A stretch of 64,000 nt of DNA from the IMG/VR virus record IMGVR_UViG_3300024307_000003, positions 29,687-93,686 of that record. One strand, given 5' to 3'. The stretch comes from a virus. The notes below the pieces were generated by a model. That model ran no database searches. It was not told where the DNA came from and was given only the letters and a program-made list of their open reading frames with translations. Positions within the stretch are counted from its first letter, which is position 1. Each line of letters opens with the position of its first letter. Made by a program: the position numbers and the translations under genes. Shown piece after piece: positions 1,370 to 21,931 of this stretch.

Positions 1370-1377
1370 ACGATTCC

Positions 1378-4300
1378 TTAAATCTTCCCTGAGTCATACA
1401 GAGAAATTATTTTTGCGTCACTCAAGACAGATTCAAATGTTGCTGCTCGTTCAATAGTTCCAGAGAAAAGAACAGTGACATTTGGCACTATTAAGCTATC
1501 TGCTCCATAGAACACATGTTGTGCCCCTGTTGGAATATTCTCCGCCGAGGACCAAGAACCATCTGTTGTAGAAACAGTAGATACACACTCAACTCCATTT
1601 ATAAATAGCCGCAGAGTATTAACAGCATCAAGATCAACAATAGCGGTTATATGGTATGTCGTGTTCAAAGATAAAACATTATTTCCATAGTTTTCACTGA
1701 AACTTCCGCTTGTTCCTTCCGTTACTAGACTAAGAACCCCAGTGTTACTCATTGCTAGAGTTAACCCTGTACGCCCAGCAGAAATCCCATTACCGTTATC
1801 TGACAGTCCCATAATCGGAACAGGGAAAGTGCTAGGAGCAAATGCTGTTGGTCTCACCCAAACGCTGAATGTCCGCTGTCTTCCGTTTGTGGCTGTGAAG
1901 TTAGTTCTTGGTGAACTATTAAATCCACTTATCCCACCAATGCTCCCACGAGTAAGGTCAGTTCCAGAGAAGCTACCATTTCCGTTGTAAGACAACCTGA
2001 ATCCAGCAGTAAGAGATATATCACTCTGATAAGCATAGTCCTGCTCCAATTCAAATCTAATATAAGAACTTGGGGTGGATTCAAAAATATAATTGTCATG
2101 CAGTGTACGATTACCAGTGTTGAATAACAGTCTTGCATTGGCTTCAGATATTGTACTGTTGTAGGTACTTATCTTCTCGAAAGTTCCTGTATAGTTTCTT
2201 CCAACTTGAATACTGTCATAATCACTATTTCCGGGACTCAAAGATTGGAAATATCCTCCAAAGGTTTGTACAGCAGAAACTCTGCTAGCAATAGTTCCCG
2301 GCCAGTTTCCAGTGTATATCTGACACTTGTTAGTTGTGTTGATCTGGTTTGTATCCAAACTCACAGCAATGAAAGTATTCCATCCTGCTGCTAACACTCC
2401 ATTACCTGATGACCATTGAATATAAGCTCCGTTATCGTGGGTATTGTAGTTATAGAGTCTAAACAGAATAGCACCAGCACTGGTGATTCTCAGATCCCAA
2501 TACACCCAGTTTGTTGTACCATCAAAGTTGTACCCAGCCATTAAAGACGCGTCTGTTAATGTTGCCGGTAAAGATGTCCAGAAAGAGATTCCTAATTTAC
2601 CGGAGCCAACTACTGGAGCAACAGGTAACACATCTGTGGGATAAAGGAACACAACAGGTTCAATTCCATTTAGAGAATTAGCTCTTGCTGAGGTTGTTCT
2701 ACTGCCGTCTCGAATGGTTCCAGCTTGACCCACCAAAGCAACTGATCCATATGTTGCAAGATTTGCTAATGGGTTAACATACTCTCTAACATCTGCTGTG
2801 CTGTAATCATTCATCGGATAGAGTGTTTGAGGAATACGAGAAGCTTTCATAGCTTCTAGGTCATAAAGACCACCGGGGAAAATGTTCCCAGTTGTCACAC
2901 TATTTCCATTTAGGATAGTTGCGGACATTGGTTTAACTTTTCCAATTATCCCAGAGGTTGTGCTTATTCCAGATATGGTACTAGATAATCTCTTAGTTGC
3001 CGAGCCAGTTAATGCTCCAGTTCCTGTTATAGTAGCTACCAAGCGTTTTCTCATTGTCCCAGATAACGCACCACTACCTCCAATAGAGGAACTAACAAAA
3101 GTTCTCAGTCCAGATGCTGTGGTTGTGCTAGAGCCAACTATTGTAGCTGCCATCTGCTTCACTTTAGTGAAATTAGCTGTAATGCTCCCTAAACCACTAA
3201 TTGAAGATGAGCCATATTTAATCTTTCTCAGATTAGCACTTACTGTAGAAGTACCAGCGATAGTTGTGTTACTTCCTTTATTAATAGAAGCTACGACACT
3301 GTGGACACTTGCAATGTTAGCGCTAAACCGCTTGGTGATATTGGCCACTACGTTGGAAGTACCAACCATTACCAATCCAGAAGACTTGTTGATGCTTCCT
3401 GTAATGGCTCCATTTCCTGCTATAGTGGAAACCAATCGCTTGTTCAGAACACCGGAGGTTGTTGTGGTTCCTGTCAGAGTTGCAGACAAGGAGTATGCCG
3501 GGCCTGCGCTTACTAAACTTGTTCCAGCAATTGTAGCAACCATGTTCTTTGCTATAGCTGCTGTTACGTTGGAAGTTCCAGAAATAACTGTTCCGCCACC
3601 AAACGCTGGGGCTGCTGTTACATCCGCTGTTCCAGAAATTGTGCTGCTCATCTGTTTGGACACAGACGCTGTTACAACTCCAGCTCCTGTTATGGTGCTG
3701 GCTACTGGTTTATACACAGTAGCAGTTAATGCTCCGCTTGCTGAAATAGCAGCAGACATCACTGTAGACATATTGGCAGTAATAGCGCCAGAAGCTGTTA
3801 TCGTAGCAGATATGGCTTTAACACCATTACCCGCTGACAATGCGCCACTTCCTGTAATTGTAACGCTCTGGAATGTTCTGACAGCCGTTGCTGTAACAGA
3901 AGAAACTCCTGCTATAGGAGCGGAAACAAACGATATATCATCCTTGGTGAGGATAGCTGATATTCCAGAGGTACCTGCAATGAACGCCGCCATAGATTTG
4001 ATAGACGGAGTGACAGGCGGTAAATATTCTTCTTGCGGAGGAAGAGTGTACACAACTTCCTGTGATGGGGTGAGGGCTACACGTCCGCGCTCTGTTCCAC
4101 CAAGTGTTCTCACAACAAATTCTAAATCATATTGTCTGGAGTTTCTGTTGTATCTGGATTCAAAGAACACCAGCTCCAGCACTTCGGGGTTCAAGAGAAT
4201 TGTTCTTCGATACCAAGCATCCACTTCCAATTTGGTGATTCCGGGCTGTGCAATATAATCCCGGTTAATTCCACCAAACTGTGTGTTATTAAACCATTCC

Positions 4301-4428
4301 CCCTTAAAAGCTCTCAGCGTAACCTCAAGCTCTTGTCTGACACGTTTGTTCGTGTCTCTAACAAGGGACAACCCACCATTCTGGTAGGATAAATCCCCCG
4401 TAGTGGGGTCGATATATAAATCGAACAT
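1378..4428 (-). CDS. Baseplate gp25/DUF2634-like wedge protein fused to ~18-aa S/T/G repeats and two LamG/ConA-like domains
   Basis: N-terminal ~120 aa (GDL...VRQELEVTLRAFKGEWF...FGG) typical of the small protein between spike and baseplate J; about 20 repeats; C-terminal FSVWVRP...YHITAIVD...LRLFINGV...FSGTIE LamG signature. Confidence 0.75.
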   Translation of the reverse strand: MFDLYIDPTTGDLSYQNGGLSLVRDTNKRVRQELEVTLRAFKGEWFNNTQFGGINRDYIAQPGITKLEVDAWYRRTILLNPEVLELVFFESRYNRNSRQYDLEFVVRTLGGTERGRVALTPSQEVVYTLPPQEEYLPPVTPSIKSMAAFIAGTSGISAILTKDDISFVSAPIAGVSSVTATAVRTFQSVTITGSGALSAGNGVKAISATITASGAITANMSTVMSAAISASGALTATVYKPVASTITGAGVVTASVSKQMSSTISGTADVTAAPAFGGGTVISGTSNVTAAIAKNMVATIAGTSLVSAGPAYSLSATLTGTTTTSGVLNKRLVSTIAGNGAITGSINKSSGLVMVGTSNVVANITKRFSANIASVHSVVASINKGSNTTIAGTSTVSANLRKIKYGSSSISGLGSITANFTKVKQMAATIVGSSTTTASGLRTFVSSSIGGSGALSGTMRKRLVATITGTGALTGSATKRLSSTISGISTTSGIIGKVKPMSATILNGNSVTTGNIFPGGLYDLEAMKASRIPQTLYPMNDYSTADVREYVNPLANLATYGSVALVGQAGTIRDGSRTTSARANSLNGIEPVVFLYPTDVLPVAPVVGSGKLGISFWTSLPATLTDASLMAGYNFDGTTNWVYWDLRITSAGAILFRLYNYNTHDNGAYIQWSSGNGVLAAGWNTFIAVSLDTNQINTTNKCQIYTGNWPGTIASRVSAVQTFGGYFQSLSPGNSDYDSIQVGRNYTGTFEKISTYNSTISEANARLLFNTGNRTLHDNYIFESTPSSYIRFELEQDYAYQSDISLTAGFRLSYNGNGSFSGTDLTRGSIGGISGFNSSPRTNFTATNGRQRTFSVWVRPTAFAPSTFPVPIMGLSDNGNGISAGRTGLTLAMSNTGVLSLVTEGTSGSFSENYGNNVLSLNTTYHITAIVDLDAVNTLRLFINGVECVSTVSTTDGSWSSAENIPTGAQHVFYGADSLIVPNVTVLFSGTIERAATFESVLSDAKIISLYDSGKI

Positions 4429-4450
4429 CGTTGTTCTCGTTTAAAATGTA

Positions 4451-5035
4451 TTACGGAATGGGAGTGCTTGTTGGGCTACCCGGAGAAGCTGAAGTGTGTT
4501 TATGTGTTTCAATCGGTAAACCATTCAGAATATAACTTCCTGTGTGTGTAATCGTTCCAACGATCTCAATATTCCCATCCAAGCCAAGAGCAATACGAGA
4601 AGCACCACTCTCAATAACAATCTTCCCCGGCTCTATAGGCTTCTCATCAGGGAGAGCGAAGATACAAGGGAGGGCAGCTATAGGGTGAAACTCATGTGTC
4701 TTCAGATCATCAGGGATAGAGACAGAAGCCCCATTCTGAAGCAGGCTACCGTAGTCCCTATCTGAGAACAACACCAGCACCATATCCCCTACACTCACAG
4801 GAACGGTTATACGGCTCGTTCCACCTCCCCCGCTATACACCATAAGGGGTACGTTAGAAATAGGCGGGAAGGGCTGGATATGGCCATCCTTGTACTTGGT
4901 TTGTGTCAGGATAGTGCCTGAGATTCTGTTCCCCACCACTTTAGTGACAACAGCCGGCTTGATCGTGTGAATGTGCCGCATGTAGTTCATTAGGAACTTG
5001 TTTAAAATATACACAGGATCATTTGTATTAGACAT
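4451..5035 (-). CDS. Baseplate central spike (Gp138/gpV-like)
   Basis: VPVSVGDMVLVLFSDRD OB-fold motif; C-terminal THKHT H-x-H metal-binding apex motif. Confidence 0.88.
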   Translation of the reverse strand: MSNTNDPVYILNKFLMNYMRHIHTIKPAVVTKVVGNRISGTILTQTKYKDGHIQPFPPISNVPLMVYSGGGGTSRITVPVSVGDMVLVLFSDRDYGSLLQNGASVSIPDDLKTHEFHPIAALPCIFALPDEKPIEPGKIVIESGASRIALGLDGNIEIVGTITHTGSYILNGLPIETHKHTSASPGSPTSTPIP

Positions 5036-5088
5036 TTGTTACCACTTGTGAAAATCGTTTACGATTGAACAAGAAGGAGGGTATGTGT

Positions 5089-6021
5089 TTACACATACAC
5101 GACTACTTCATCCGCTTCCATGTTCGTTACCCATTCCCCGCCTTCCAAGGTTCCAGAGTGAACCACTGAGGTCACTTTATACCCACCCTTGTAAAATCCA
5201 TCTGAGGATTCCACATACACGGTTTGATTAGGCATAATGGCTCCATTCAGGAGACACTTGATTCTAACGCTCTTCTTGGGGGACGTTTTGTCTTCTGGGT
5301 TGGTGCCCTCACTCTTGTTCAGAGGAGCAATCTCCAATAACCCGCTTTGAGCGGTTAGCTTGATGATTTCTTGTCTGGTGCCTTTATCTTTAGGCATCCA
5401 ACAGACAGCTCCCTCTTGCACACTGAAATCCGAGTTGGTTATCTTGGCTATTCTCCGGAGCTGTTCACAGCTACTCCCGGCAGCATAGAAGTCACTCTTC
5501 GTCACCATCTCTGGGACGTTCAGCAAGCCTCCAGCTTTAGGAAGGCCCATATCCCCTACGATGTCTTCTACAATCGTCTTGTAGGGCGTCCCAAGAGGGT
5601 AGGAGCGTACAGAAACAGTTTCCCGCATGTTGACACTACCATCCCCAAGAGAAAGCTCTAGAATGCTGTCAGGACTATTGAATGTATATGTGTAGCTTTC
5701 AACTGTTCCCTTGAATATCTCTTTGATTCCAGATTCATACCCAGCAGAGAGGATTGCCCCCAAGGGCTTACCATTCAAGTTTTCAAGATACCCGAGAATT
5801 TCCTTGGGCATGTTGTAGATTGTGATGGAACCACTATTGGGGGAATCTGTGACGCTCTTGCGGATATTGAATGAGATGTTGTGTTCTGTCAGGCGGTAGG
5901 CATTGGTGGGACTCTTGGAGTCTACTAACTTCCCAATATCCACCACTTCCGGTGTGACGTAGGTGCGCTTCACTTCAATCGGTTTACCAAAATCCAATTG
6001 ATACTTACGATTAAACAGCAT
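5089..6021 (-). CDS. Baseplate hub protein
   Basis: ISFNIRKS...NSGSITIYN...LSAGY...IFKG pattern; position before spike. Confidence 0.8.
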   Translation of the reverse strand: MLFNRKYQLDFGKPIEVKRTYVTPEVVDIGKLVDSKSPTNAYRLTEHNISFNIRKSVTDSPNSGSITIYNMPKEILGYLENLNGKPLGAILSAGYESGIKEIFKGTVESYTYTFNSPDSILELSLGDGSVNMRETVSVRSYPLGTPYKTIVEDIVGDMGLPKAGGLLNVPEMVTKSDFYAAGSSCEQLRRIAKITNSDFSVQEGAVCWMPKDKGTRQEIIKLTAQSGLLEIAPLNKSEGTNPEDKTSPKKSVRIKCLLNGAIMPNQTVYVESSDGFYKGGYKVTSVVHSGTLEGGEWVTNMEADEVVVYV

Positions 6022-6391
6022 CTCCTACACTCTCCGCCCAAGCGTTGATATCTTCATCTTCGCTAACAAAAATTAAAAAGAATCTACCATCCCGGAAAGT
6101 TCCTTCTTTAGAAGGTCTTCCCCATTGATCATCCATATCTATTACTTTTAGTAGTCCTTTAGGAACTTCATCATAAGCTTTATAAGGAACAAGAAGATCA
6201 ATACCATTCACAATCTTGAACTTCACTCTGGGGTCTTGCCCCAAGAGACCAACGTAGCAATACCAAGCATCTTCAAATGAGTTGTAACGATACCGGAAAG
6301 CATAATATTGATTTCCTATCTGAACACGTACACGTTGATCCTGATAGAGGTTGTTTGAATCAGGCCCACGCATTGGGAGGACAATCGGCAT
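6011..6391 (-). CDS. Small baseplate protein (plug-like)
   Basis: FRYRYNSFEDAWY motif; synteny between Dit-like and hub genes. Confidence 0.65.
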   Translation of the reverse strand: MPIVLPMRGPDSNNLYQDQRVRVQIGNQYYAFRYRYNSFEDAWYCYVGLLGQDPRVKFKIVNGIDLLVPYKAYDEVPKGLLKVIDMDDQWGRPSKEGTFRDGRFFLIFVSEDEDINAWAESVGDAV

Positions 6392-10223: not shown

Positions 10224-11549
10224 TCACAATTTGACAAAACCGGAAATTTTGAAAGTATGCCAAACTGGATTAATCGTTGCTTCAAACGGAATATCCGGCA
10301 GGAAGCGATTAGCCTTGTTGTTTGTGCTGATGTCAGATGCTTTAGGTGGGAACACTTTGTAAGAAGCAAGCCACCCGTATTTAACAAACTCATCCAGCAC
10401 AACATTCATTTCACTGACAACTTCACGAATACCTTCATCTCCAGCCAGACGTTTCCCCAAGTCGGAAACACGTTTGATCAAACCAAACACGCCTTCCTGC
10501 ATACGGGCTTCAAGAGCCAGAGAACCGTGGATATTATCGAAGAACCTCCCGCTAGAAACCTTACCGTCTTCCATCCAACCCACACCGCCACGACGAACAT
10601 AAATATTCGCAGACTTACCTTTAGCAAAAGTAGCTTCAGTGGTGGAGATAGAATCAACAGCAACACCTATCAGGGTCTTGGCAAACAAGTCACCAGTTCC
10701 GGGGAAGGAAGTTGCGATAGTTCCAAGAGCAGCACCCTCGGCAAATTCTTTATCCGCACCTTTATACGCAACCAACATAACGTTGTCATATTGTGCAGCA
10801 TTCAGAATAGAGGCGATGTCAACAGTGGAGCTAGTGAAGATTGCGCTTTCCTGCGAAGACACAAAATAAATCTTCTTATTGGCAGCAGCATATTCTGCAA
10901 AGTCTTCAATGTCTGTTCCATCGTGGCTATCAGACAAAATGAAGAACCATTGATCATTCACATCCACAATTGCACTCAGAGCCTGAGTTGCAGTTTCACT
11001 CGAAGTGAAGGACAGAGTGATGTTGGAAGTGGAAGCTCCCAAGCTCACCTTACCAGTAGAAGCAGGGGCTACAATCAATGTAGAGGTACTATTGGTTGCA
11101 GTGACAAAAGAGTTGATATCTGTGTCAGCTTCAATCAAAGCAGCCAGCCCAGCAGCAATCTCTGTTCCTGTTGCATCAGCATCGGAAGTGTAAGTAAATG
11201 CTTTATCATAAGAAGCACTACCAGTGTTGACACTCAAGGTGATCGTGTAAGCAGTGGTGTTAGCAACGTCAAAGGTTGCTCTGTAATCAGTGAGCGCTCT
11301 GCGACCAATTACAACTTGATTCGGAGCTTTGATACCTGCAAAAATATCAGCTACCATTTTATAAACCGGGCTACCATCGGCAAAACCATCAGCCAGCAGA
11401 TCATCAGCATCCGTATAAATACGAACACGATCTGTCCACACATTATGTGCAGAAACAATCACTGGGATGTCAAACGATGCTACAGATATTGGTCGATCAC
11501 CAAGGGTGATAACGACATCTACAATATCTTCAATATCAAATGCCATCAA
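10224..11549 (-). CDS. Contractile tail sheath protein (DUF3383-like)
   Basis: IEDIVDVVITL...FDIP, KTLIGV, GKVSSGRFFDNIHG motifs. Confidence 0.88.
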   Translation of the reverse strand: MMAFDIEDIVDVVITLGDRPISVASFDIPVIVSAHNVWTDRVRIYTDADDLLADGFADGSPVYKMVADIFAGIKAPNQVVIGRRALTDYRATFDVANTTAYTITLSVNTGSASYDKAFTYTSDADATGTEIAAGLAALIEADTDINSFVTATNSTSTLIVAPASTGKVSLGASTSNITLSFTSSETATQALSAIVDVNDQWFFILSDSHDGTDIEDFAEYAAANKKIYFVSSQESAIFTSSTVDIASILNAAQYDNVMLVAYKGADKEFAEGAALGTIATSFPGTGDLFAKTLIGVAVDSISTTEATFAKGKSANIYVRRGGVGWMEDGKVSSGRFFDNIHGSLALEARMQEGVFGLIKRVSDLGKRLAGDEGIREVVSEMNVVLDEFVKYGWLASYKVFPPKASDISTNNKANRFLPDIPFEATINPVWHTFKISGFVKL

Positions 11550-13401: not shown

Positions 13402-13782
13402 TTAATCTTCAGTGATGGTGATCTGACCAATCGCGAAGGTACCACTCTCACCGTTGTTCAGGGTGATGTTGGAAGTCAGCGGGCCGTAGTACTTAACATT
13501 TCCACCTGAACCTGTTGCTGCTGAAACAATAAAAATATGCGTAGCTGTTGCCCATGCGCCTCCAGAGGCGGTAAAAGTTACAGCTCCTGTATTGGTAGCA
13601 GTACTCCCAGTTACTGTAAAACTTACAGACTGACGTGTGTAACCATTACCAGTAAGCTCCACAGCCGATATAGTGGTACCAGTGTGAGCATCTGTAGGGG
13701 TTGCACTGCACAGTCCAACCCAGTTGGAACCACCCAGTAAGTTGGTAAGGGCCGCATTTTCTGCGTAATCTGATTTTGGCAT
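13402..13782 (-). CDS. Small virion fibre subunit, paralog 1 (SDY.EN...GY.RQ.V.F family)
   Basis: Aligns end to end by eye with 14159..14566. Confidence 0.65.
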   Translation of the reverse strand: MPKSDYAENAALTNLLGGSNWVGLCSATPTDAHTGTTISAVELTGNGYTRQSVSFTVTGSTATNTGAVTFTASGGAWATATHIFIVSAATGSGGNVKYYGPLTSNITLNNGESGTFAIGQITITED

Positions 13783-13792
13783 TTAATCCTCC

Positions 13793-14137
13793 TTAACAAA
13801 CAGAAACGTAAAGCAGAGGAGATTCACATCCCTCTCCCAATACAATCCCGTTTGGTGTTAAAATATCGTAAATAGTTAGACGTGCAGGAAGTGGTGTACA
13901 ATTCCTTGACGTAAGATAAGGGCCTAGTTTTAACCAGATTTCCCCTGTCTCAAATGGGTCTTCAGGAGTTCCTATCCAAGTGAAAGCATCATCATCAACA
14001 TCGCTGTCAACAAATTCACCATCACACTCAAGGGTCATCCTGAGAACACCAGAGAGGTCTACCGGAATCTCTTTATCCAACACCTTAATTCGGGTTGTTG
14101 TATCTGATCCTGCATAGACTGAAACGAAAATGGTCAT
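13793..14137 (-). CDS. BppU-N-like adaptor beta-sandwich protein
   Basis: PVDLSG...TGEIWLKL pattern; start MTIF after GGAGG. Confidence 0.45.
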   Translation of the reverse strand: MTIFVSVYAGSDTTTRIKVLDKEIPVDLSGVLRMTLECDGEFVDSDVDDDAFTWIGTPEDPFETGEIWLKLGPYLTSRNCTPLPARLTIYDILTPNGIVLGEGCESPLLYVSVC

Positions 14138-14158
14138 ACAAACCTCCAAATGAAGGAG

Positions 14159-14566
14159 TTACGCCACTTCCAGACGCAGTTCACCGATAGGAAACTGACG
14201 TACTTGACCAGAAAGAACAGTAACCGGAGAAGTTAATGCAAAGTGCATAATGACATTACCAGCACCATGTGTGGCACTATCAGTGATAAAAGCATGTGTT
14301 GCAGTTACCCAATCAGCCGATGCTGTAAAGTTTACTGCACCCGTATTTGCAATACGGTTGTTTGCACCTCCAGACGGGGCACCAAAAGTAACCGCTTGAC
14401 GAGCATAGCCGTTAGAGTTGGCCAGCTCGGGAATGGTTGCTCCTGTGTGAGCATCTGTTGTGGCAGACGAAGCCAAACCAACGTACACAGTTGTTGGGGC
14501 TGTAATGTTGGTGCCACGAATCCAATTAAGGATTGCGTTTTCCATATAATCTGAAAAAGCGGACAT
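14159..14566 (-). CDS. Small virion fibre subunit, paralog 2
   Basis: MSAFSDYMENAILNW...YVGL...GYARQAVTF...W.TATH.FI. Confidence 0.65.
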   Translation of the reverse strand: MSAFSDYMENAILNWIRGTNITAPTTVYVGLASSATTDAHTGATIPELANSNGYARQAVTFGAPSGGANNRIANTGAVNFTASADWVTATHAFITDSATHGAGNVIMHFALTSPVTVLSGQVRQFPIGELRLEVA

Positions 14567-14594
14567 CTGTTATTGTTTTCCTCTATGTTGTGCC

Positions 14595-15470
14595 CTAAAG
14601 AGCGTTCCTGTTAATTGAATGAACAAGACGAATTTTTTGTAATCTTTGGAGACGAAGCGATGGGGAACGAATTGTTCCTGAAGCAAATCCACTTCCTAAT
14701 AGCGATCCTGCTAAATCAGACCCAGTAGCCAAGAATGTGGAGTTAACCACTCCAGTTCCTGTTCCAGAAGCTGTCCCTGCAAGGTCAGCAGCTTGAGAAA
14801 GGATTGTGTTTCCTGTTCCAGTGGCTACCCCTTGGCTTTGTCCAGCAAAGCCCGTGTAGAGGCCCCCAGAGGCTATAGCTGTCCCTACGGAGTCCCCAGA
14901 GATATAATCAGGTTGGTCAATTCCCCCTTCTACTAACCCGCTTCCCAGAGCAGAAGCCCTGAAGGTCAGAAGAACTGTTCCTGTTGCGGTAGAGGATGCC
15001 ACTCCAGAGGCTCGTAGAGGCTCATAGAGACCTCCTGATACAAACCCGCTACCTAAGCCTTGGGCACTCCATATTTCGCTAAGGGAAGCTCCACCAGAGC
15101 CTGTGCCTACAGCATCAGCCTTGATGTCTTGGATTGTTGTAACAGAAGCAACGCTTCCAATTCCAACCCCTAGAACCTCTGCTCTAAATACATCATCGTC
15201 TATATTTCCATCAGCTACACCCGAGCCAAGGGCTACGGACTGTAGGGCTGGATAACTTGTGGCCTCTCCTGATCCAACTCCAGAAGCATCAGCTTCCAAG
15301 ACAGAATAGATTCCCCCAGAAGCTAACGCTTGTCCTACAGGGGCGGCAGTGAAGTATTGAACGAGGTTGGCAGTGGCAAATCCACTACCGAGAGCATCAG
15401 CTTCAAACGCGGGTAAGTAATCAAACCCACTATCTTCAGGTGTTAGAAAGCTGCGATCTAAGACAGCCAT
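14595..15470 (-). CDS. G/S/A-rich ~18-aa repeat virion protein
   Basis: About 12-13 repeats of [FL]-x-A-x-x-x-G-S-G-x-A-x-G-x-[IL]. Confidence 0.65.
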   Translation of the reverse strand: MAVLDRSFLTPEDSGFDYLPAFEADALGSGFATANLVQYFTAAPVGQALASGGIYSVLEADASGVGSGEATSYPALQSVALGSGVADGNIDDDVFRAEVLGVGIGSVASVTTIQDIKADAVGTGSGGASLSEIWSAQGLGSGFVSGGLYEPLRASGVASSTATGTVLLTFRASALGSGLVEGGIDQPDYISGDSVGTAIASGGLYTGFAGQSQGVATGTGNTILSQAADLAGTASGTGTGVVNSTFLATGSDLAGSLLGSGFASGTIRSPSLRLQRLQKIRLVHSINRNAL

Positions 15471-15526
15471 ATTATTCTCCTGAGACTTTTAAAGTCGAAG
15501 ACAGCGTGAACATCTTTATGGACACG

Positions 15527-15883
15527 CTACACCTCAACTACTGTGCCTGTTAATCTGAAGTAATGACTCTCATCATCATCAAATGCCACCAAACGGTACA
15601 CTTGTCCTGTTGTAGCAGCACTCAGCGTTATTTCTCCAATCCCGTTAGTGATAACTAGGTTGGTTCCTTTATCCACAGCAGTGATTGCTTGCCCGTTGTA
15701 ATTCGCTATATCAATGTCCGTCTGAGTGATAAACCAGTATTGAAACGTGTGGGTAACAGGATTCCCGGCAGTATTAACTACCGGGTTTCCGCTTCCAATG
15801 ATAATCTTCTTTGGAACATCACCAACTTGAAGAGCACCAGTTAACCATCCATTCTCAACTAAACTACCTGTTAACCATGCCAT
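15527..15883 (-). CDS. Hypothetical virion appendage protein
   Basis: SD AGGGGA; beta-rich; inside the appendage cassette. Confidence 0.55.
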   Translation of the reverse strand: MAWLTGSLVENGWLTGALQVGDVPKKIIIGSGNPVVNTAGNPVTHTFQYWFITQTDIDIANYNGQAITAVDKGTNLVITNGIGEITLSAATTGQVYRLVAFDDDESHYFRLTGTVVEV

Positions 15884-15893
15884 TTAAATCCCC

Positions 15894-18257
15894 TTATAAT
15901 GTGTAGCTAAAACCGGAATAACTTCCGCTTCCGCTATCAGGAAACTCAACGTATACAGTTTCACCAGTAACACCCATCACATTGTTAGTTAATGTCCAGA
16001 TTCCCGAACCATTTGTATTAACTGTGGTACTAAGTGCTATAGTTCCATCTGCTCTACGAATACGTACAGGGATGTTAGATACGCTAGCTCTTATTTGTTT
16101 TGTAGAAGCGTCTCTCATCACTTGACTAGTGATTGTTACGTTTGCGGGGTTAACTGTCAAACCAACTGTGTTGGAATAGACAATACCACCTTCAGAGCTT
16201 GTCACTCGACAATAGAAAGATTTTCCATTATCTCCAAGAACTGTTGTTCTAGCATAAGTAGAAGAAGTTGCTCCTGACACTAATATATCAGTTGTACCAT
16301 TTTCTTCAAACCATTGATAAGCAGAAGCTCCTGTAGCAGACAGAACGAACGAGGCTACTTGACCTGCTGTTACGTTTTGAGCCGAAGGTTGAACAGTGAT
16401 AGTGGGTACGCTAGCTGCCCGTGTAGTTACGCTTACAGAGTCTGTTACTCCTCCCGAAGCTACGCCACCTGTTACAACAGCACCATAAGTACCAGAAGTC
16501 AGTTTCATATAAACTGTCTGACCAAGCTGTCTTACTACAGAACTTCCATATGTTCCGTTGCTTGCATCAGACACTGTAGCACTTCCTGTAGCAGCAAAAG
16601 TAACGTTTGTAGCTGCTGTAGTTCCTGCTACAACAAAAGAACGTATTGTGTCTGTATTAGGATTGGCTCCTGTTACATCAGCTCCAAGATCAAACTGTGT
16701 TGGAATAATGTCTGCTGGTGGATCATAATTTATAGTAGCAAAAGCTGAATGTGCTCCATCCGTCTGATCTACAACTGCAACACTCATCGTTCCATCAAAA
16801 GCGCCCGTGAAGGTTGGAATACCATTCGCAGCAATACTAATTGTGTTGGTTTCATTGTTGTAAACCAACTGATCCCCATTCGCTGCTGCTGGGGATGTCT
16901 CCACCTCTCCTGTAGTAGAAGCTGGATTGTAGCCAGATAAAGTTACATGACTATATCCTGTAGCAGGAGTCATTGATGTTGACCCAGAAGCACTTCCACT
17001 AGTAAGGGTTACAGTTGCACCATAAAGAGTGGCAGGCCAGTTAGAGGATGTTCTAGCTACAGCGGTTGTTGTAGAATTTACAGCAGTGTGTGCACCTTGT
17101 GCAACTCCGTTAATTGTAACTGCCGATAACGACCCCGGCGCTTCATCCCATGTAATCTGAAAACTAGTCTGGTCATAACGGATAGGATTTCCGCCATTGA
17201 TAGACAGGATTGAGTTACTAACTGCCAAAGTAGTTACGTTGACAGAAGCATATATTTTAGCTCCTAAACCCCCTACTTCTTGAGCACGAACCCAGTATCT
17301 TCGTTGTGTATTTGCCGGTAAATCTATAGTGGTGTCATAGAACACAGTAGCCGCCACACTAGTACCATCAGTTGGTGCAGCATCAAAGGTGGCATCCGAG
17401 GGTTGAGCTTGTGATATGTTGTCATAACCGATTATCTTAATAGTGGCAGCAAGGGATGTTGTGAGTGCCATCCTGAAACTACTAGCGGTTATCTGGTCCG
17501 CAGAAGGAGTAGCCAACCAAGACAATGTAGGTGTTGTCGATGGCATCGTATCGTCATCAGCTGCGATAGCAAGTAACACATCTTCAATAGTAGCTTCATC
17601 TAGGGCTGCTGTTTCCCACGCAGCACACTTAATCATTCCTTCGCCATTATCAAAAGCTGTCTGGCGATTACCTATAACTAATTGGGCTGTACCAGTAAGA
17701 CCACTTATGGTAGCGTTCTGTGGGAGAGTATAACCACCATAACCACCATCAGGTGTTATCGGCGTAAGCACACCACCCGACAACGTATAGAACTTTATTC
17801 GTTCCTGAATCGTTGCCTGAGTGGTGTCGATACGGACAGCAATAAGGGATTGGGAATTGTAAAAATTAAAACTATTACCAGCGAAATTAAAACCATGTAG
17901 ACCAAAAACACTACGCTCATACATTAAGGCCGGTGTACCACCATCTGGTCCAAGTATAAACATAGTGGACCAGTCGTCTACAGAATACCCAGCCCATTTA
18001 AGGAAGAATGTTCCTTGGTTTGTTCCATTAAGTTCCGTAGCTATTGTAGAACCAATTGCAGCCCAAGCCCTAGCGTCACTTGTTTCGCTTGCAGCGGTCC
18101 AATTTAAACCGCTACCCTCCCCATCAGCCGAGAAGGCCATTCCTCCCGGACCATAATCGAGCGTTAGAGGTAGAGAAGCAGTGCCTTGGTTGGCAGTAGT
18201 GGTTGGTGTAGTTCCGCTAGTAGCTTCGTCTAAACCGTAGAAAAATTTAAAACTCAT
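15894..18257 (-). CDS. Large multidomain appendage protein (LamG-like N-terminus, Ig-like domains)
   Basis: PTITVQPSAQNVTAGQVASF...YQWF...DNGKSFYCRVT is a clear Ig I-set-like motif; LVIGNR...GMIK fits ConA-like. Confidence 0.7.
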   Translation of the reverse strand: MSFKFFYGLDEATSGTTPTTTANQGTASLPLTLDYGPGGMAFSADGEGSGLNWTAASETSDARAWAAIGSTIATELNGTNQGTFFLKWAGYSVDDWSTMFILGPDGGTPALMYERSVFGLHGFNFAGNSFNFYNSQSLIAVRIDTTQATIQERIKFYTLSGGVLTPITPDGGYGGYTLPQNATISGLTGTAQLVIGNRQTAFDNGEGMIKCAAWETAALDEATIEDVLLAIAADDDTMPSTTPTLSWLATPSADQITASSFRMALTTSLAATIKIIGYDNISQAQPSDATFDAAPTDGTSVAATVFYDTTIDLPANTQRRYWVRAQEVGGLGAKIYASVNVTTLAVSNSILSINGGNPIRYDQTSFQITWDEAPGSLSAVTINGVAQGAHTAVNSTTTAVARTSSNWPATLYGATVTLTSGSASGSTSMTPATGYSHVTLSGYNPASTTGEVETSPAAANGDQLVYNNETNTISIAANGIPTFTGAFDGTMSVAVVDQTDGAHSAFATINYDPPADIIPTQFDLGADVTGANPNTDTIRSFVVAGTTAATNVTFAATGSATVSDASNGTYGSSVVRQLGQTVYMKLTSGTYGAVVTGGVASGGVTDSVSVTTRAASVPTITVQPSAQNVTAGQVASFVLSATGASAYQWFEENGTTDILVSGATSSTYARTTVLGDNGKSFYCRVTSSEGGIVYSNTVGLTVNPANVTITSQVMRDASTKQIRASVSNIPVRIRRADGTIALSTTVNTNGSGIWTLTNNVMGVTGETVYVEFPDSGSGSYSGFSYTL

Positions 18258-18258
18258 A

Positions 18259-19551
18259 TTATCTAGTCCCTAAATCATAGACTTCATATCCCGGCGCGGA
18301 AGCTCCGAATCTACTATCAGCACCATAATCTACGGAAGTCACTAGAAGATTCTGTTCGTAATCGTAGTAAGCACCGCCAATACGATGGTAGTATGCACTT
18401 CGCATAGTGCTATGGTTCCAGTAACCATGCTTGTATGGGCGTATCATGTGCGGAGGATTCAAACTTGGATTACCAAATGAATCTGCTAAATCCTGCAAAT
18501 CAAATAACCAGTAATAGTTTGCGTATGCTTGATGATAATAAGCGCGGTAAGCTTGCGAGGTATCACCATTATCACTAGGTTGACTTGCACCGTAGCAGAT
18601 GAATAAACCACCGGGAGGATTATTGTATGGGGCACGACGGTCTAAATTAGACCCGATACACATCAGTGTATTTGTGTTTGGAAGAATGAAGGCCCCTGCG
18701 ATTGCTGATAGGTGATTCCACAGTTGCGATTGTAAATCATCAGATAGTTGTGTTCCCGGGCCAAAGGGAAAATCCATGGCAGGAGTTGTGCTGATAAGCG
18801 TAGGAGTATCGCTTACTTGCATATCGTCAAAATTAACCGGCCATGCCGTTGGACCAACAGCCATCCGGGAGATGATAGGCCAATATCCTACCCCACCACA
18901 CATTAAGTGGGATGCCCCACCAAACGATGATCGCCATGATGCAGGTAATTTAACTGCGCGCCCAGCACTGCGGGCAGCACCAGAAATCTGGAACATACCG
19001 TAACGTGTGAACGTTGAAAGTGCTGCTGCGTTACGCAATAACGCAGAGTTATATGCATCAAGTGTGTTACTGTAGTAGCTATGACCGCCTAAATGTAATT
19101 GTCCTGTTCCTACATAACTTGGATCAAGCGGATGCGAAACTGCATCATAGGAAATGGCAGCCAGCTTGAAATCGGCGCTCATGTTGGTGAACTGAGTGTG
19201 TAAACGTTTGAACCCCTGCCGATTAGTTCCAACGTTCATCGCCGCACGATTAGTTGTGTTGACCAGCGCCGGAATGTTGAATTCACCCACCGACTGGCGA
19301 CCATTTGTTTCAGTGCCCTGCACAAAAATACGGCCAGTTGCTGTACCTTTGCTGATGCACTGACGACCGATGTAAAACATATCATCTTCGCCGGCAGTGT
19401 TTGGGTCCAGTAAAAAATGACCGATGACGACAGGCGCGGTAACGTCTGGGTCATACAACCCAGCAGAAGCTTGGGGATAAGGTCTGTAAAAACTGTCTGT
19501 ATGTTCGTAAAGAGGAACAGTTGAGCCGGGTACAACAATAGTCTTAGACAT
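18259..19551 (-). CDS. Putative receptor-binding or enzymatic appendage protein
   Basis: 430 aa; shares an N-terminal 26-aa anchor motif with the upstream gene. Confidence 0.55.
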   Translation of the reverse strand: MSKTIVVPGSTVPLYEHTDSFYRPYPQASAGLYDPDVTAPVVIGHFLLDPNTAGEDDMFYIGRQCISKGTATGRIFVQGTETNGRQSVGEFNIPALVNTTNRAAMNVGTNRQGFKRLHTQFTNMSADFKLAAISYDAVSHPLDPSYVGTGQLHLGGHSYYSNTLDAYNSALLRNAAALSTFTRYGMFQISGAARSAGRAVKLPASWRSSFGGASHLMCGGVGYWPIISRMAVGPTAWPVNFDDMQVSDTPTLISTTPAMDFPFGPGTQLSDDLQSQLWNHLSAIAGAFILPNTNTLMCIGSNLDRRAPYNNPPGGLFICYGASQPSDNGDTSQAYRAYYHQAYANYYWLFDLQDLADSFGNPSLNPPHMIRPYKHGYWNHSTMRSAYYHRIGGAYYDYEQNLLVTSVDYGADSRFGASAPGYEVYDLGTR

Positions 19552-20785
19552 AATGGTGTGCCCCTCTCTTAGTTGTGGTTGGTCTTACTGTGTCGTCAAC
19601 ATCGTACAGAACATCCGCTGATCTATTAGAAGATGGGACAGCTGCGCCTCCTGTGGAGTTCAATCTTAGGTTCCCTGTTGAGGGATTTACAAACCACGAT
19701 GAACTTGCGTTTAATGTATTATTGTCTCCAGTATAGTTAGCAGAATCTCTCATTCTTATACTGTCATCAGATAGATTATTATCCACTACTAAACCACTAG
19801 ACCATCTACCTTGGAAAGCATCATTAACTTGGCCATTTGTTACCACGGTATTGTTTATGGCTTTACCATTAGGACAATCCCACAGATTAATTGCTCCATC
19901 TGACCCAGCTATTGTTTCAGCACTGAACCTGCCTGCGGCCATATAAACCATATTGTTTCTAGCAATACCACCATAGCAATCATTTTCTCCGCCGCCCCTT
20001 AAAATCAAACCTAGAGATATAGATCGGGCACAATTAATAAAAGTGTTCTGTTCCACAATAGGGTTTGTTGATCTGTTCCAGAAATAAACGGCTGGGCTAT
20101 ATAAGTAGTAGGTTGCTCCTCCGGGAAGAGCTGCAATTTCTGCTGCTGTTGGAGTGTTCTCAATAAATTGATTCTTTCGTACTACCCAACCACTACTATT
20201 GTGGACATCTATCATTCCACCATAAAAATAACCTGCACCTTCATGGTCTGTTGTAGGGCGTCCGTTTGTATATGCAAAATAACTATTTTCTACAAGTCCA
20301 TTATTAATGGCGTCGGGAAATGCGCTGACTTTCAAAAACTGTTGGCCCATATCCAACATTCTTACGTTTCTTAATGTAGGGCTAGTTGCTCCGGCTCCGA
20401 AGGTAACACCGTGAAAATAAAATTGCTCTATTGTTAAATCTTCTACTGTCAAACCGGGGTATTGGGAATATATACCGTGAGGACAACCACCGTAGCTGGA
20501 GTTGTCCATTCCCCTTCCCCTCAATACAATATCTGAAGCTACTCCAGAGGCACCTTTTATTGTTACATTGCTAGCTGCTGGAACTAAAGTATTATTGAGA
20601 ACATAAACACCCGGCCAGACAATTTCAATTATGTCGTTTGGTTGGGCAGAACTTATAGCCGCCTCTAACCCGGACAAGGTGCCTACTTGTACAATACGCC
20701 CGTTGTATGGGTAAGGATACCAGTACGTATCTGGGTGTTGGTATAAAGTTATTGCCGATCCCGGCACCGTTATTGTTTTAGCCAT
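19544..20785 (-). CDS. Right-handed parallel beta-helix (pectin-lyase-like) protein
   Basis: LEAAISSAQPNDII...PGVY...NVTIKG, Asn-ladder repeats; true start MAKT at 20785 after GAGGG. Confidence 0.75.
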   Translation of the reverse strand: MAKTITVPGSAITLYQHPDTYWYPYPYNGRIVQVGTLSGLEAAISSAQPNDIIEIVWPGVYVLNNTLVPAASNVTIKGASGVASDIVLRGRGMDNSSYGGCPHGIYSQYPGLTVEDLTIEQFYFHGVTFGAGATSPTLRNVRMLDMGQQFLKVSAFPDAINNGLVENSYFAYTNGRPTTDHEGAGYFYGGMIDVHNSSGWVVRKNQFIENTPTAAEIAALPGGATYYLYSPAVYFWNRSTNPIVEQNTFINCARSISLGLILRGGGENDCYGGIARNNMVYMAAGRFSAETIAGSDGAINLWDCPNGKAINNTVVTNGQVNDAFQGRWSSGLVVDNNLSDDSIRMRDSANYTGDNNTLNASSSWFVNPSTGNLRLNSTGGAAVPSSNRSADVLYDVDDTVRPTTTKRGAHHYV

Positions 20786-20860
20786 ATTCCCTCTTCTTAT
20801 TTTGGGGAATGCACATTCGTGCAAAGAAGACCCGTCTTGTGCGTGTCTTCGGAATTCTAT

Positions 20861-20905: not shown

Positions 20906-21931
20906 TTAGGTAATAGTAGCTTTTACAATCAACTGAGGCTTGGCACAGAAGTGTGCGAAGTTGGATTCAGTTTCAATGTCATAACCTTGACCACGGTCAT
21001 TCTCATAAACAAAAGCGTACATCGGAACACCAACGGTGTTGACATAGCTGTTGTGTGACATTGGAGCATAAATAGTCTTGAACAGACCACTTACCATCGG
21101 GATAATACGAGCTTCACCAGCAGGAATCAGTGGGGTGCCTTTCATCTGACCGCGATATTCGATGTGCAGAATACCAGCTTGATCAACGAAGGTACGATGG
21201 CCACGACCAACAGTCGGCAGACGATCCCGCAGGAAGTTACCGTTAGCGTTAGTAGCAGCAAACTGACTGTAAGCTTCTTTAACGTTAGTGTTGGTAGTCA
21301 GCTTAGCGAAGAACTCTGGAGAGTCCAGAGAAATAAAGTCAGTTACAATCATACCGTCTTGCAGGTTGTCTTGAATGTAAGCAATAACTTCTTCAGACTT
21401 AGCTTGAGGAACACCAGTACCACCAGTGTCGATATCATAATCTACAACTTTCTGAGTTACACCCAGATCAGTGAAATAGTTGGTAGATACAGTTCCGTTA
21501 GGAGCGTACACAGTACCGTCTTTAATCAGTTGCAGACGCGACCATTCGCGCAGTTGTGCCCAAGAGTTATTGATGCGCAGCAACTCTTCTGCTACTTTAG
21601 CGTCAAAGCTGGAGAACTCCTGATCAGTACCCGGAGCGCGCTGGCTTTGAACGTCTTCTGGCATAATGCGGCCATCAAACGGGAAGTGAGGAATAGAGAA
21701 AGAGAAGGTTTTTACAATCCCTTTATCTACGAACTGATCACGACGGCTTCCCCACATGCGATCTTCTGGCAGACTGAAACCAGACTCAATTTGATCGTAC
21801 TGGAAAGTACGGGTGCGAACACCAGTTTCTTCAAACAAACCCAACTGGTTAACAAGACCATACATATTCTCAATCTTGTTAACGTCCGGGGTACGGTCCT
21901 CAAGGAAATTTGTGTCTTTACGAACTGCCAT
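20906..21931 (-). CDS. Major capsid protein (lambda E-like HK97 fold)
   Basis: IPHFPFDGRIMPEDVQ, EWSRLQLIKDG, IETESNF...PQLIVK; strong codon bias. Confidence 0.92.
   Translation of the reverse strand: MAVRKDTNFLEDRTPDVNKIENMYGLVNQLGLFEETGVRTRTFQYDQIESGFSLPEDRMWGSRRDQFVDKGIVKTFSFSIPHFPFDGRIMPEDVQSQRAPGTDQEFSSFDAKVAEELLRINNSWAQLREWSRLQLIKDGTVYAPNGTVSTNYFTDLGVTQKVVDYDIDTGGTGVPQAKSEEVIAYIQDNLQDGMIVTDFISLDSPEFFAKLTTNTNVKEAYSQFAATNANGNFLRDRLPTVGRGHRTFVDQAGILHIEYRGQMKGTPLIPAGEARIIPMVSGLFKTIYAPMSHNSYVNTVGVPMYAFVYENDRGQGYDIETESNFAHFCAKPQLIVKATIT

Follow-up and report, generated by a model that had tools for sequence, protein, structure and literature searches.

Two Gp80-family bead proteins and an 18-residue repeat protein as candidate components of a rope-and-bead fibre in an uncultured myophage

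Two small paralogous proteins of an uncultured, contractile-tailed myophage are, judged by their sequences, members of the Gp80 bead family (PF23140), and the gene next to one of them encodes a 291-aa protein of 18-aa repeats that is very probably the rope for these beads. Together, the three proteins are likely to build a chain-like accessory fibre of the type known from phages GP4, Bas63 and A1002. The window that we analysed comprises 64,000 nt of the 93.7-kb IMG/VR record IMGVR_UViG_3300024307_000003, and the features relevant to this fibre are as follows.

13402..13782 (-), bead paralog 1, 126 aa, Gp80 family (PF23140)
13793..14137 (-), 114-aa beta protein between both bead genes, conserved in relatives
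14159..14566 (-), bead paralog 2, 135 aa, Gp80 family (PF23140, phrog_240)
14595..15470 (-), candidate rope A, 291 aa, with 18-aa repeats, adjoining bead paralog 2
15527..20824 (-), accessory cassette of ORFs reaching from the major capsid gene to the rope gene
4090..4428 (-), gp25/W-like wedge domain, residues 1-113 of fusion B (phrog_120)
2881..3981 (-), 20 basic 18-aa repeats, residues 150-516 of fusion B (repeat HMM)
1381..2838 (-), two predicted LamG/ConA-like lectin-type domains, residues ~531-1016 of fusion B (Foldseek, VIA-align)

A full-length alignment of the 126- and 135-aa proteins gives 45% identity (E 1e-26), and the shared motifs listed in the preliminary description fall within it, which bears out the paralogy claimed there. 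Bead paralog 2 matches PF23140 with an E value of 3.8e-30 (105.3 bits) and bead paralog 1 with 1.7e-19 (70.9 bits; the cut-off is 27), and these are the only two matches in the whole 93.7-kb record. A profile built from 23 members of the bead family recovers GP4 gp80 (8jou_a) at full length (E 5.4e-24) and A1002 gp41 (26la_U) at E 0.012, while detecting no sequence similarity to the Bas63 whisker. The two proteins had been proposed to be bead subunits of a repeat-templated fibre, and both the family assignment and the cryo-EM precedents support this. Both beads are acidic, and the label of the family in PHROGs is "head protein". In the relative L003, the orthologs of paralogs 2 and 1 (the latter 122 aa long) are 73% and 75% identical to the proteins studied here, i.e., more similar than the sheath (62%) and the capsid protein (61%). 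The bead tree places the paralogs as sister lineages that were duplicated within this lineage only, and it gives no assignment of one to a neck type and the other to a baseplate type. The earlier suggestion that each template has its own dedicated paralog thus gains no support from the tree, and in A1002 a single rope bears two paralogs. An IMG/VR scan with bead paralog 2 returned one useful relative, and a scan with the protein-database homolog P0013 returned none.

Periodicity was assessed by BLOSUM autocorrelation against shuffled sequences. The 291-aa protein shows peaks at lags 18, 36, and 54 (z 5–6), and an iterated repeat HMM delimits 12 units in residues 24–271 (nt 14658–15401); with an extra degenerate stretch at residues 96–119, the total is about 13 units. 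The repeats are Gly-centred and acidic (net charge -14), with Pro in about one-third of them, and are flanked by a conserved N-terminal tag and a basic, conserved C-terminal tag of about 22 aa. Of the 72 ORFs in the window that start with ATG and encode 110 aa or more, this protein ranks fourth for periodicity of 16–22 aa, and the baseplate-wedge fusion described below ranks first; the second rank is taken by an antisense shadow of the fusion gene. Thus, both sets of 18-aa repeats noticed earlier were recovered, the acidic set of the 291-aa protein with about 13 units and the basic set of the fusion with 20. Tandem Repeats Finder detected no 54-nt DNA repeat in either gene, and hence the periodicity is old and maintained at the protein level rather than a product of recent slippage. 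A lag-9 signal is likewise absent from the autocorrelation of both arrays, so that the two half-sites within a repeat differ.

The gene of the 291-aa protein lies 28 nt upstream of that of bead paralog 2, and no natural in-frame read-through from rope to bead was found. The protein has no match in Pfam, PHROG, or PDB (the last searched up to E 10). Between its orthologs, of 291, 292, and 271 aa, sequence identity in the repeats falls to 23%, and only the overall length, both ends, and the placement of Gly and hydrophobic residues are conserved, a pattern more consistent with backbone-bonded strands than with a packed core. The ESM Atlas model is solenoid-like, at low confidence (pLDDT 0.50).

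The principle of a repeat-templated rope with beads is already published from cryo-EM. In GP4, Bas63/Sf14, and A1002, the beta-sandwiches of Gp80-like dimers are incomplete and receive their missing strands from the rope on which the dimers are mounted (PMC12609058, PMC13730344). The dimers of the Bas63 whisker are "like beads on a string", the rope "completing the incomplete sandwiches" (PMC12609058), and in A1002 each of the 11 dimers takes part in an augmented beta-sheet with the rope (PMC13730344). [quoted passage not shown]

From these fibres we infer how the present one might be put together. Each bead would be an incomplete beta-sandwich that dimerises by way of its N-terminal helices, and the rope would pass through the grooves of successive dimers, donating the missing strands by beta-augmentation. 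Most likely, what sits on each 18-aa repeat, with its two short strands and Gly hinge, is a dimer and not a single subunit, because 226 rope residues serve 11 dimers in A1002 and two dimers in Bas63 are accommodated on fewer than ~52 residues. The ~13 repeats would then hold about 13 dimers (26 subunits) per rope, and repeat number would set the length of the fibre. Of the earlier suggestion that a repeat strand completes one small subunit, strand completion agrees with the cryo-EM relatives, whereas the single subunit per repeat gives way to a probable dimer; the notion of repeat number as a ruler for fibre length is plausible. The conserved terminal tags of the rope would provide attachment to the virion and to the tip, and both paralogs may share the 291-aa rope, as they do in A1002.

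Comparison with individual systems brings out both likenesses and differences. The beads of GP4 fibre I (PDB 8JOU), which are gp80, belong to the same Pfam family as those studied here, and its rope, too, is encoded separately beside the bead gene, although downstream of it rather than upstream. A 325-aa gene adjacent to GP4 gp80 bears Gly-centred repeats of 20 aa, compared to 18 aa here. On the other hand, GP4 is a podophage of Ralstonia with five dimers, whereas the present phage has a contractile tail, ~13 repeats, and two bead paralogs; GP4 also has the adaptor gp77 (PF23148), of which our record contains no homolog. By sequence, gp77 and gp80 are the only GP4 proteins present in 8JOU, and PDB sequence searches with Bcep22 gp61 and with GP4 gp79, the repeat protein beside gp80 and a candidate for the GP4 rope, gave no match. 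Unlike the two arrays here, which lack a signal at half their period, GP4 gp79 shows a lag of 10. Bas63 and Sf14 (Felixounavirus) are myophages with Gp80-like dimers roped at the neck, but their rope, a short extension at the N-terminus of an Ig-like collar protein, holds only two dimers, in contrast to the free-standing 291-aa protein with ~13 units. The Pseudomonas podophage A1002 has in common with our locus two bead paralogs and the order rope, bead, bead; its rope, with ~20 aa per dimer, is acidic, like the 291-aa protein, and, being fused to a tail part and ending in a binding-type domain, it has the layout of the baseplate fusion. Both A1002 paralogs, however, occupy one nozzle-fused rope, while the rope here is free-standing; the fused array here, which is possibly no rope at all, extends from a wedge protein of the gp25/W type.

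The position of the rope gene between the capsid and head-tail adaptor genes, together with the precedents of GP4 and Bas63, suggests that the fibre is located at the neck. The gene order is retained in L003 (small protein, rope, bead, 110-aa protein, bead, adaptor). The cassette at 15527..20824 encodes a 426-aa beta-helix-like protein, a 430-aa protein, a 787-aa Ig-domain protein that matches the tail protein family phrog_3995, and a 118-aa protein; these products are possible tips or cargo of the fibre, and L003 has a cassette at the equivalent position with other large proteins. PF23148, the Gp77-type Ig-like fibre-tail adaptor, is absent from the 93.7-kb record at E values up to 1 (the record is estimated to be 69% complete), and hence the anchor must differ from that of GP4 or be encoded outside the record. 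A speculative candidate for an anchor or adaptor of the rope is the 114-aa protein encoded between the bead genes, which is kept in eight relatives and at the equivalent position in L003, and has three invariant cysteines, one of them the C-terminal residue. It shows no similarity to GP4 gp77/PF23148 (hhalign probability 0.6%) and no match in PDB and Pfam profile searches; its AF2 model has a pLDDT of 44, and ESM Atlas offers only a BppU_N-like lead.

The preliminary description had also anticipated that the bead family would co-occur with repeat proteins, and this is what we observed. Nine other bead loci, representing several unrelated phage groups, were ranked for 16–22-aa periodicity, and in eight of them (L003, Bcep22, GP4, C72C1, CRP-5, Lietuvens, PVJ1, and yong2) a gene beside the bead gene came first or second in the locus. 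KPP25 ORF005–007 served as a sequence proxy for A1002 and as a positive control: ORF005, 006, 007, and 008 (620, 147, 171, and 398 aa) match A1002 gp39–42 in length, the rope gene is followed by the two bead genes, and within the fibre-dock region the autocorrelation is strongest at lag 20, compared to 20.5 aa per dimer in A1002 (226 aa for 11 dimers). In Lietuvens and PVJ1, Mu-gp48-like baseplate proteins encoded directly after the bead gene carry a basic N-terminal extension of about 125 aa with a 20-aa period, and a 1038-aa protein of yong2 has a comparable periodic, bead-adjacent extension. Charge complementarity between bead and rope was rejected as a rule, the proven A1002-type rope being acidic like its beads and the baseplate-fused candidates basic. 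The period is 18 aa in both arrays here and in L003 and about 20 aa in the other bead-adjacent proteins examined, and this difference speaks against the proposed fibre, as do the absence of a Gp77 anchor from the record, the solenoid-like ESM model of the 291-aa protein, and the finding that repeat HMMs of the 291-aa protein match no other rope candidate, including the L003 ortholog; yet ropes diverge too fast for undetectable similarity to imply non-membership.

The second repeat array belongs to a 1016-aa fusion protein (1378–4428), the gene of which lies between a spike gene (4451–5035) and Baseplate_J (2–1369). Its N-terminal domain matches the baseplate wedge family phrog_120 (E 7.6e-13) and phrog_4233 (E 4e-20); neither this domain nor the C-terminal lectin-type region has a Pfam match. 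Residues 131–520 give autocorrelation peaks at lags 18 (z 10) and 36 (z 8.9), and the repeat HMM finds 20 units in residues 150–516, with a net charge of +22. Homologs of the wedge domain are mostly stand-alone proteins of 110–170 aa, whereas in fusion homologs the repeat region spans about 270–580 residues, or roughly 15 to 32 units. Eleven other wedge-repeat fusions (P0124–P0134) are present among protein-database homologs, and a metagenome scan with the wedge-fusion alignment yielded a single 1.6-kb fusion fragment. The C-terminus is predicted to form a pair of LamG/ConA-like lectin-type domains: Foldseek matches this region to the laminin LG4-5 and neurexin LNS pairs in PDB (E ~1e-7), and VIA-align gives Z scores of 13–14 to CBM40 and sialidase lectin domains, with mixed pLDDT (30–84) over these domains.

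The AF2 monomer model, based on an alignment of 12 sequences, folds residues ~200–430 of the fusion into a beta-solenoid with a pLDDT of 80–90. The modelled array (~156–519) superimposes on MpAFP (3P4G) with Z 22.4 (rmsd 2.3 Å over 256 residues) and on CsgA (8C50) with Z 25.4, and shares with both turns of 18–19 residues. Unlike MpAFP, the repeats have no conserved acidic position, so that the Ca-binding acidic turn has no counterpart, and they lack the Gln/Asn ladder of CsgA; in contrast to both, they are strongly basic, and their fold is a prediction. We downweight this prediction for two reasons: the flanking globular domains score lower than the array, and ESMFold draws the probable true rope as solenoid-like, too. 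Repeats that fold alone as a beta-solenoid are what the preliminary description had named as evidence against its model, and the proposal that the baseplate array is a second template has thus lost ground; a monomer prediction is, however, compatible with bead binding.

What the fusion array does is a close call. In the wedge, a protein of this type is present in a single copy (T4 gp25, P2 gpW). The known rope carriers are single-copy as well, which speaks for a monomeric rope rather than a trimeric shaft. It is possible, at somewhat less than an even chance, that the 20 basic repeats form a second rope in addition to the fibre on the 291-aa protein, loaded with about 20 dimers, perhaps of the other paralog; the phage would then bear six beaded tail fibres with two lectin-type tips. 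Such a system would account for the 18-aa period common to both arrays here and to both in the relative, where other bead-adjacent proteins have ~20, and for the lineage-specific duplication that produced two bead paralogs. Fusions of ropes to tail parts are plausible in A1002, Lietuvens, PVJ1, and yong2. Moreover, Barba5S, used as a negative control, has a wedge homolog without repeats and a genome without PF23140, and among 80 IMG/VR wedge loci both a repeat extension on the wedge protein and a bead gene within 10 kb of the wedge gene occur only in one, the relative. A solenoid, in addition, would stack about 16 Lys/Arg residues in register with no acidic partner, while the beads are acidic. 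Against this stand the confident solenoid model, which exceeds the flanking globular domains in pLDDT, and the distance of 9 kb between the fusion gene and the bead genes, all other candidate ropes being adjacent to theirs; the co-occurrence is limited to one lineage, the repeat HMMs link the two arrays neither to one another nor to other ropes, and charge follows no consistent rule. The circumstantial evidence points to a second rope; on the evidence as a whole, a beta-solenoid stalk that folds by itself, measures about 10 nm, and carries the two lectin-type domains is slightly more likely, the two being close.

It is improbable, in our judgement, that both arrays fold by themselves, as beta-solenoids or as trimeric beta-spiral shafts, and that the beads bind something else, e.g., as a ropeless capsid or neck decoration whose adjacency to the repeat gene would merely be modular synteny. 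A pitch of 18 residues per turn is typical of solenoids, and structure prediction draws both the baseplate array (AF2) and the 291-aa protein (ESM) as solenoid-like; the PHROGs name "head protein" would suit a decoration, and the fibre dimers of phage VP1 have no identified rope protein (PMC13730344). But the recurrence of a periodic gene beside the bead gene across unrelated phage groups (eight of the nine loci) speaks against such a role, as does the structurally proven rope of A1002/KPP25, which agrees with the 291-aa protein in gene order and in its class of period. The weakness of the ESM model, the frequency of Pro, and the sequence drift of the repeats at conserved length and termini argue in the same direction. 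Hence the fibre of Gp80-family beads on the 291-aa rope remains our preferred explanation.

Rope-and-bead fibres were recognised in 2023–2026, with four phages solved. This locus and the small survey indicate that a gene of strand-type repeats of ~20 aa usually lies beside a gene of the bead family, and suggest that the rope may be free-standing or grafted onto a collar, a nozzle, a Mu-gp48-like baseplate protein, or an esterase fibre, the gp25-like wedge protein being a possible further graft site. The resulting genomic rule is simple: it would annotate many "hypothetical" repeat proteins and allow the length of a fibre to be predicted from its number of repeats. Should the baseplate array be a rope, too, this would be the first contractile phage with a primary tail fibre so built; the sheath-initiator/wedge protein itself would extend into a 20-unit rope, and the main host-binding fibre would be a beaded chain, its length written in the repeat number.

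The neck fibres of cyanophage A-1(L), named in the preliminary description as a possible precedent, proved to be the wrong comparison: they consist of gp82, gp81, and gp80 trimers in a ratio of 1:14:1, arranged head-to-tail without a template (PMC10966104). About 14 gp81 trimers lie, with no rope, between the gp82 anchor and the gp80 tip, whereas the beads here belong to the dimer-forming GP4 Gp80 family and are accompanied by a repeat protein. The likeness would lie in the beaded appearance in EM, the neck location, and the myophage morphology. The shared name gp80 in A-1(L) and GP4 is a coincidence.

The IMG/VR virus record that contains the window is 93.7 kb long, with a completeness estimate of 69%, and the minus strand of the window carries a myophage structural module. 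A search of the GenBank phage collection revealed no close relative of this phage. One IMG/VR contig (L003/L017, G001) represents a relative with protein identity of about 60–75% and the same gene order, i.e., small protein, candidate rope, bead, 110-aa protein, bead, and adaptor.

Genes of the structural module and domain layout of B
Portal, protease/scaffold, lambda-D-like decoration protein, and major capsid protein (the latter at 20906-21931), (-)
13402-20824 (-), 7.4-kb accessory cassette
19544-20785 (-), 426-aa beta-helix-like protein, from internal Met 'MAKTITVPGS...'
18259-19551 (-), 430-aa protein, 'MSKTIVVPGS...'
14595-15470 (-), A, 291-aa repeat protein
14159-14566 (-), bead paralog 2, 135 aa
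13793-14137 (-), conserved protein of 114 aa, flanked by the two bead genes
13402-13782 (-), bead paralog 1, 126 aa
Head-tail adaptor, neck, and terminator genes, tube, tape measure, sheath (10224-11549), and baseplate (1-6391), (-)
1378-4428 (-), B, 1016-aa baseplate-wedge fusion, encoded between the spike and Baseplate_J genes
B residues 1-113, gp25/W-like wedge subunit (phrog_120)
B residues 150-516, repeat array
B C-terminus, pair of LamG/ConA-like domains

The two small proteins, described from the outset as paralogs, are indeed such (45% identity, E 1e-26), and both far exceed the cut-off of the Pfam family PF23140 (Podophage GP4 fiber I protein gp80). Compared with the PDB, a 23-member profile of the family matched the solved GP4 chain 8jou_a (E 5.4e-24) and A1002 gp41 (E 0.012). 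At 73–75% between the phage and its relative (L003:10001-11118), the beads surpass every other protein of the module in conservation; the capsid protein is at 61% and the sheath at 62%. In the tree, both paralogs and their orthologs form sister lineages inside one clade, placing the gene duplication within this lineage. By the initial suggestion, each template could have a paralog of its own. Charge does not discriminate between the paralogs for rope assignment, and A1002 demonstrates that a single rope can serve two bead paralogs. The bead profile also yielded weak PDB matches to CsuA/B (E about 0.013–0.016, profile positions 66–117), an archaic chaperone-usher pilin that polymerizes by donor-strand complementation. 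CsuA/B and the beads have in common the principle that an Ig-like sandwich is made complete by a strand from another protein; homology between them is putative.

The strand-threading mechanism proposed in the preliminary description exists and is already published. In the myophage Bas63, the collar protein has an N-terminal 'rope domain' that whisker dimers wrap 'such as beads on a string'; this rope threads grooves and completes incomplete sandwiches (PMC12609058). The precedent named there, A-1(L), proved to be of a different, template-free design, in which gp82 and gp80 bracket a row of about 14 head-to-tail gp81 trimers (PMC10966104). Rope-and-bead fibres are a kind known from the literature, to which this locus adds a further member. 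Compared with the solved fibres of this kind, its combination of features is still unsolved: two paralogs and a free-standing rope of about 13 units in a myophage, with Gp77 missing.

A has an 18-residue period (z 5–6), and repeat HMMs delineate 12 units plus one degenerate stretch at residues 24–271 (net charge -14). The same period is found at residues 131–520 of B (z 10), with 20 units at residues 150–516 (net charge +22). The initial description, with about 12 acidic and about 20 more basic repeats of ~18 aa, was accurate. Neither gene contains a 54-nt tandem repeat at the DNA level. Repeat identity to the relative falls to 23% in A and is 34% in B; orthologs of A (291, 292, and 271 aa) retain a conserved tag at each terminus, the C-terminal one basic, as well as the positions of Gly and of hydrophobic residues.

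No homolog of A with a known function was detectable, and hence the case for A as a rope rests on anatomy and co-occurrence. As a positive control we used KPP25, from the same genus as A1002. Its ORF005-008 (620, 147, 171, and 398 aa) equal A1002 gp39-42 in length, in the order rope, bead, bead, and the fibre-dock region (residues 243–468) has its strongest self-similarity at lag 20. Nine other Gp80-encoding loci were scanned for periodicity of 16–22 residues. A bead-flanking gene ranks first or second within its locus in eight of the nine, spanning about six unrelated phage groups, which bears out the suggested co-occurrence of the bead family with repeat proteins.

Bead-flanking genes with first- or second-ranking periodicity
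Relative (L003), bead-flanking gene: lag 18, z 7.6
GP4 gp79: lag 20, z 6.0, lag-10 sub-period
Bcep22 gp61
C72C1 bead-flanking gene
CRP-5 gp55
Lietuvens ORF27 (L008:8403-9326)
PVJ1_58 (L011:8402-9427)
yong2 1038-aa protein (L012:4866-7982): lag 20, z 8.0; gene located upstream of the bead gene

Judged by these features and by the gene order and ortholog termini conserved in the relative, A is quite probably the rope. In two Bacillales myophages, Lietuvens and PVJ1, the bead gene is directly followed by one for a Mu-gp48-like baseplate protein (PF10076), whose N-terminal extension of about 125 aa is strongly basic and 20-aa-periodic; in Microcystis phage yong2, 20-aa repeats occupy residues about 70–190 of a 1038-aa 'carbohydrate esterase'. 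Lietuvens ORF27, PVJ1_58, and the yong2 protein are likely tail-anchored ropes not annotated as such.

Three lines point to a rope length of about 10 residues per subunit: A1002, where 226 residues for 11 dimers give 20.5 residues per dimer; Bas63, where two dimers share an extension that stops ahead of the globular-domain residue Cys52 (PMC12609058); and the lag-10 sub-period of GP4 gp79. This implies that one 18-aa repeat should carry a dimer and not, as first proposed, a single subunit. A lag-9 signal was sought in A and B and not found; thus, the two half-sites of each repeat differ, as expected for an asymmetric strand crossing a two-fold dimer. With one dimer on each repeat, A would hold about 13 dimers. 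If each took up about 27 Å, as in A1002 (300 Å, 11 dimers; PMC13730344), the fibre would be about 35 nm long; full extension would bring it to as much as about 75 nm.

The GP4 and Bas63 precedents, together with a gene location that has the capsid genes on one side and the adaptor genes on the other, suggest a place at the neck. No homolog of the GP4 anchor Gp77 (PF23148; 8jou_D) was found in the 93.7-kb record, estimated as 69% complete. An obvious candidate anchor is the 114-aa protein, which has no similarity to gp77; its only lead is a BppU_N-like match in the ESM Atlas, the AF2 model being unusable. It has three cysteines that are invariant in nine homologs, namely C80, C104, and C114 at the C-terminus; the Bas63 collar ring is tied by disulfides, and GP4 gp77 likewise ends in Cys, which suggests a disulfide-linked ring or anchor. 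The 426-aa and 430-aa proteins, elsewhere unrelated, have in common an N-terminal peptide of about 26 residues (KTIxVPGSxxxLYxHxDxxxxPYP), a possible docking strand for fibre or beads. The 'GS...LY' core of this peptide bears a loose likeness to some A repeats.

The wedge-plus-repeat layout of B is common to about a dozen database clusters (696–964 aa, with repeat regions of about 270–580 residues), while nearly all other wedge homologs are stand-alone proteins of 110–170 aa. The B array may be a self-folding stalk, a reading on which we are evenly divided. AF2 (12 sequences) folds residues about 200–430 with pLDDT 80–90, above the flanking globular domains, into a two-sided beta-solenoid similar to MpAFP (Z 22.4, rmsd 2.3 Å, 256 residues) and CsgA (Z 25.4). 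Regular strand repeats are prone to come out as solenoids in structure prediction, and A, the probable true rope, is also drawn by ESMFold as a weak solenoid; the AF2 solenoid of B is therefore discounted somewhat. In favour of a rope, a solenoid would put about 16 basic residues in register.

That the B array is instead a second rope is a tentative and slightly less probable reading. In its favour, A and B have the 18-aa period in both the phage and its relative, whereas all other bead-adjacent arrays have a period of about 20, but the two repeat types have no sequence similarity. The bead duplication arose within this lineage, and the wedge protein is single-copy per wedge, like other rope carriers. 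Candidate ropes fused to tail parts adjoin bead genes in Lietuvens, PVJ1, and yong2, while the B gene lies 9 kb away from the beads. The Barba5S wedge homolog lacks repeats and its genome lacks PF23140, and of 80 IMG/VR wedge loci only that of the relative combines the repeats with a bead gene, although this co-occurrence comes from one lineage.

In Barba5S, the wedge-extension gene is intact (441 aa), with Ig-like C-terminal domains in place of repeats; in Rheinheimera phage Barba28S (L015, MK719746.1 64083-66662), its homolog is apparently split by an opposite-strand ISAs1-family transposase gene. Past Baseplate_J, locus L016 (G000:C1:14000-30000) contains no long tail-fibre gene but only genes for proteins of 229 aa (baseplate protein), 197 aa (acetyltransferase-like), and 201 aa (tail-fibre-like), and hence host recognition may rest on B and the cassette proteins. 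A 154-aa ORF at 56481-56945 (-), with lag-21 periodicity (z 5.8) and many weak coiled-coil-type PHROG matches (SbcC-like, tape measure), is probably a coiled coil unrelated to the fibre.
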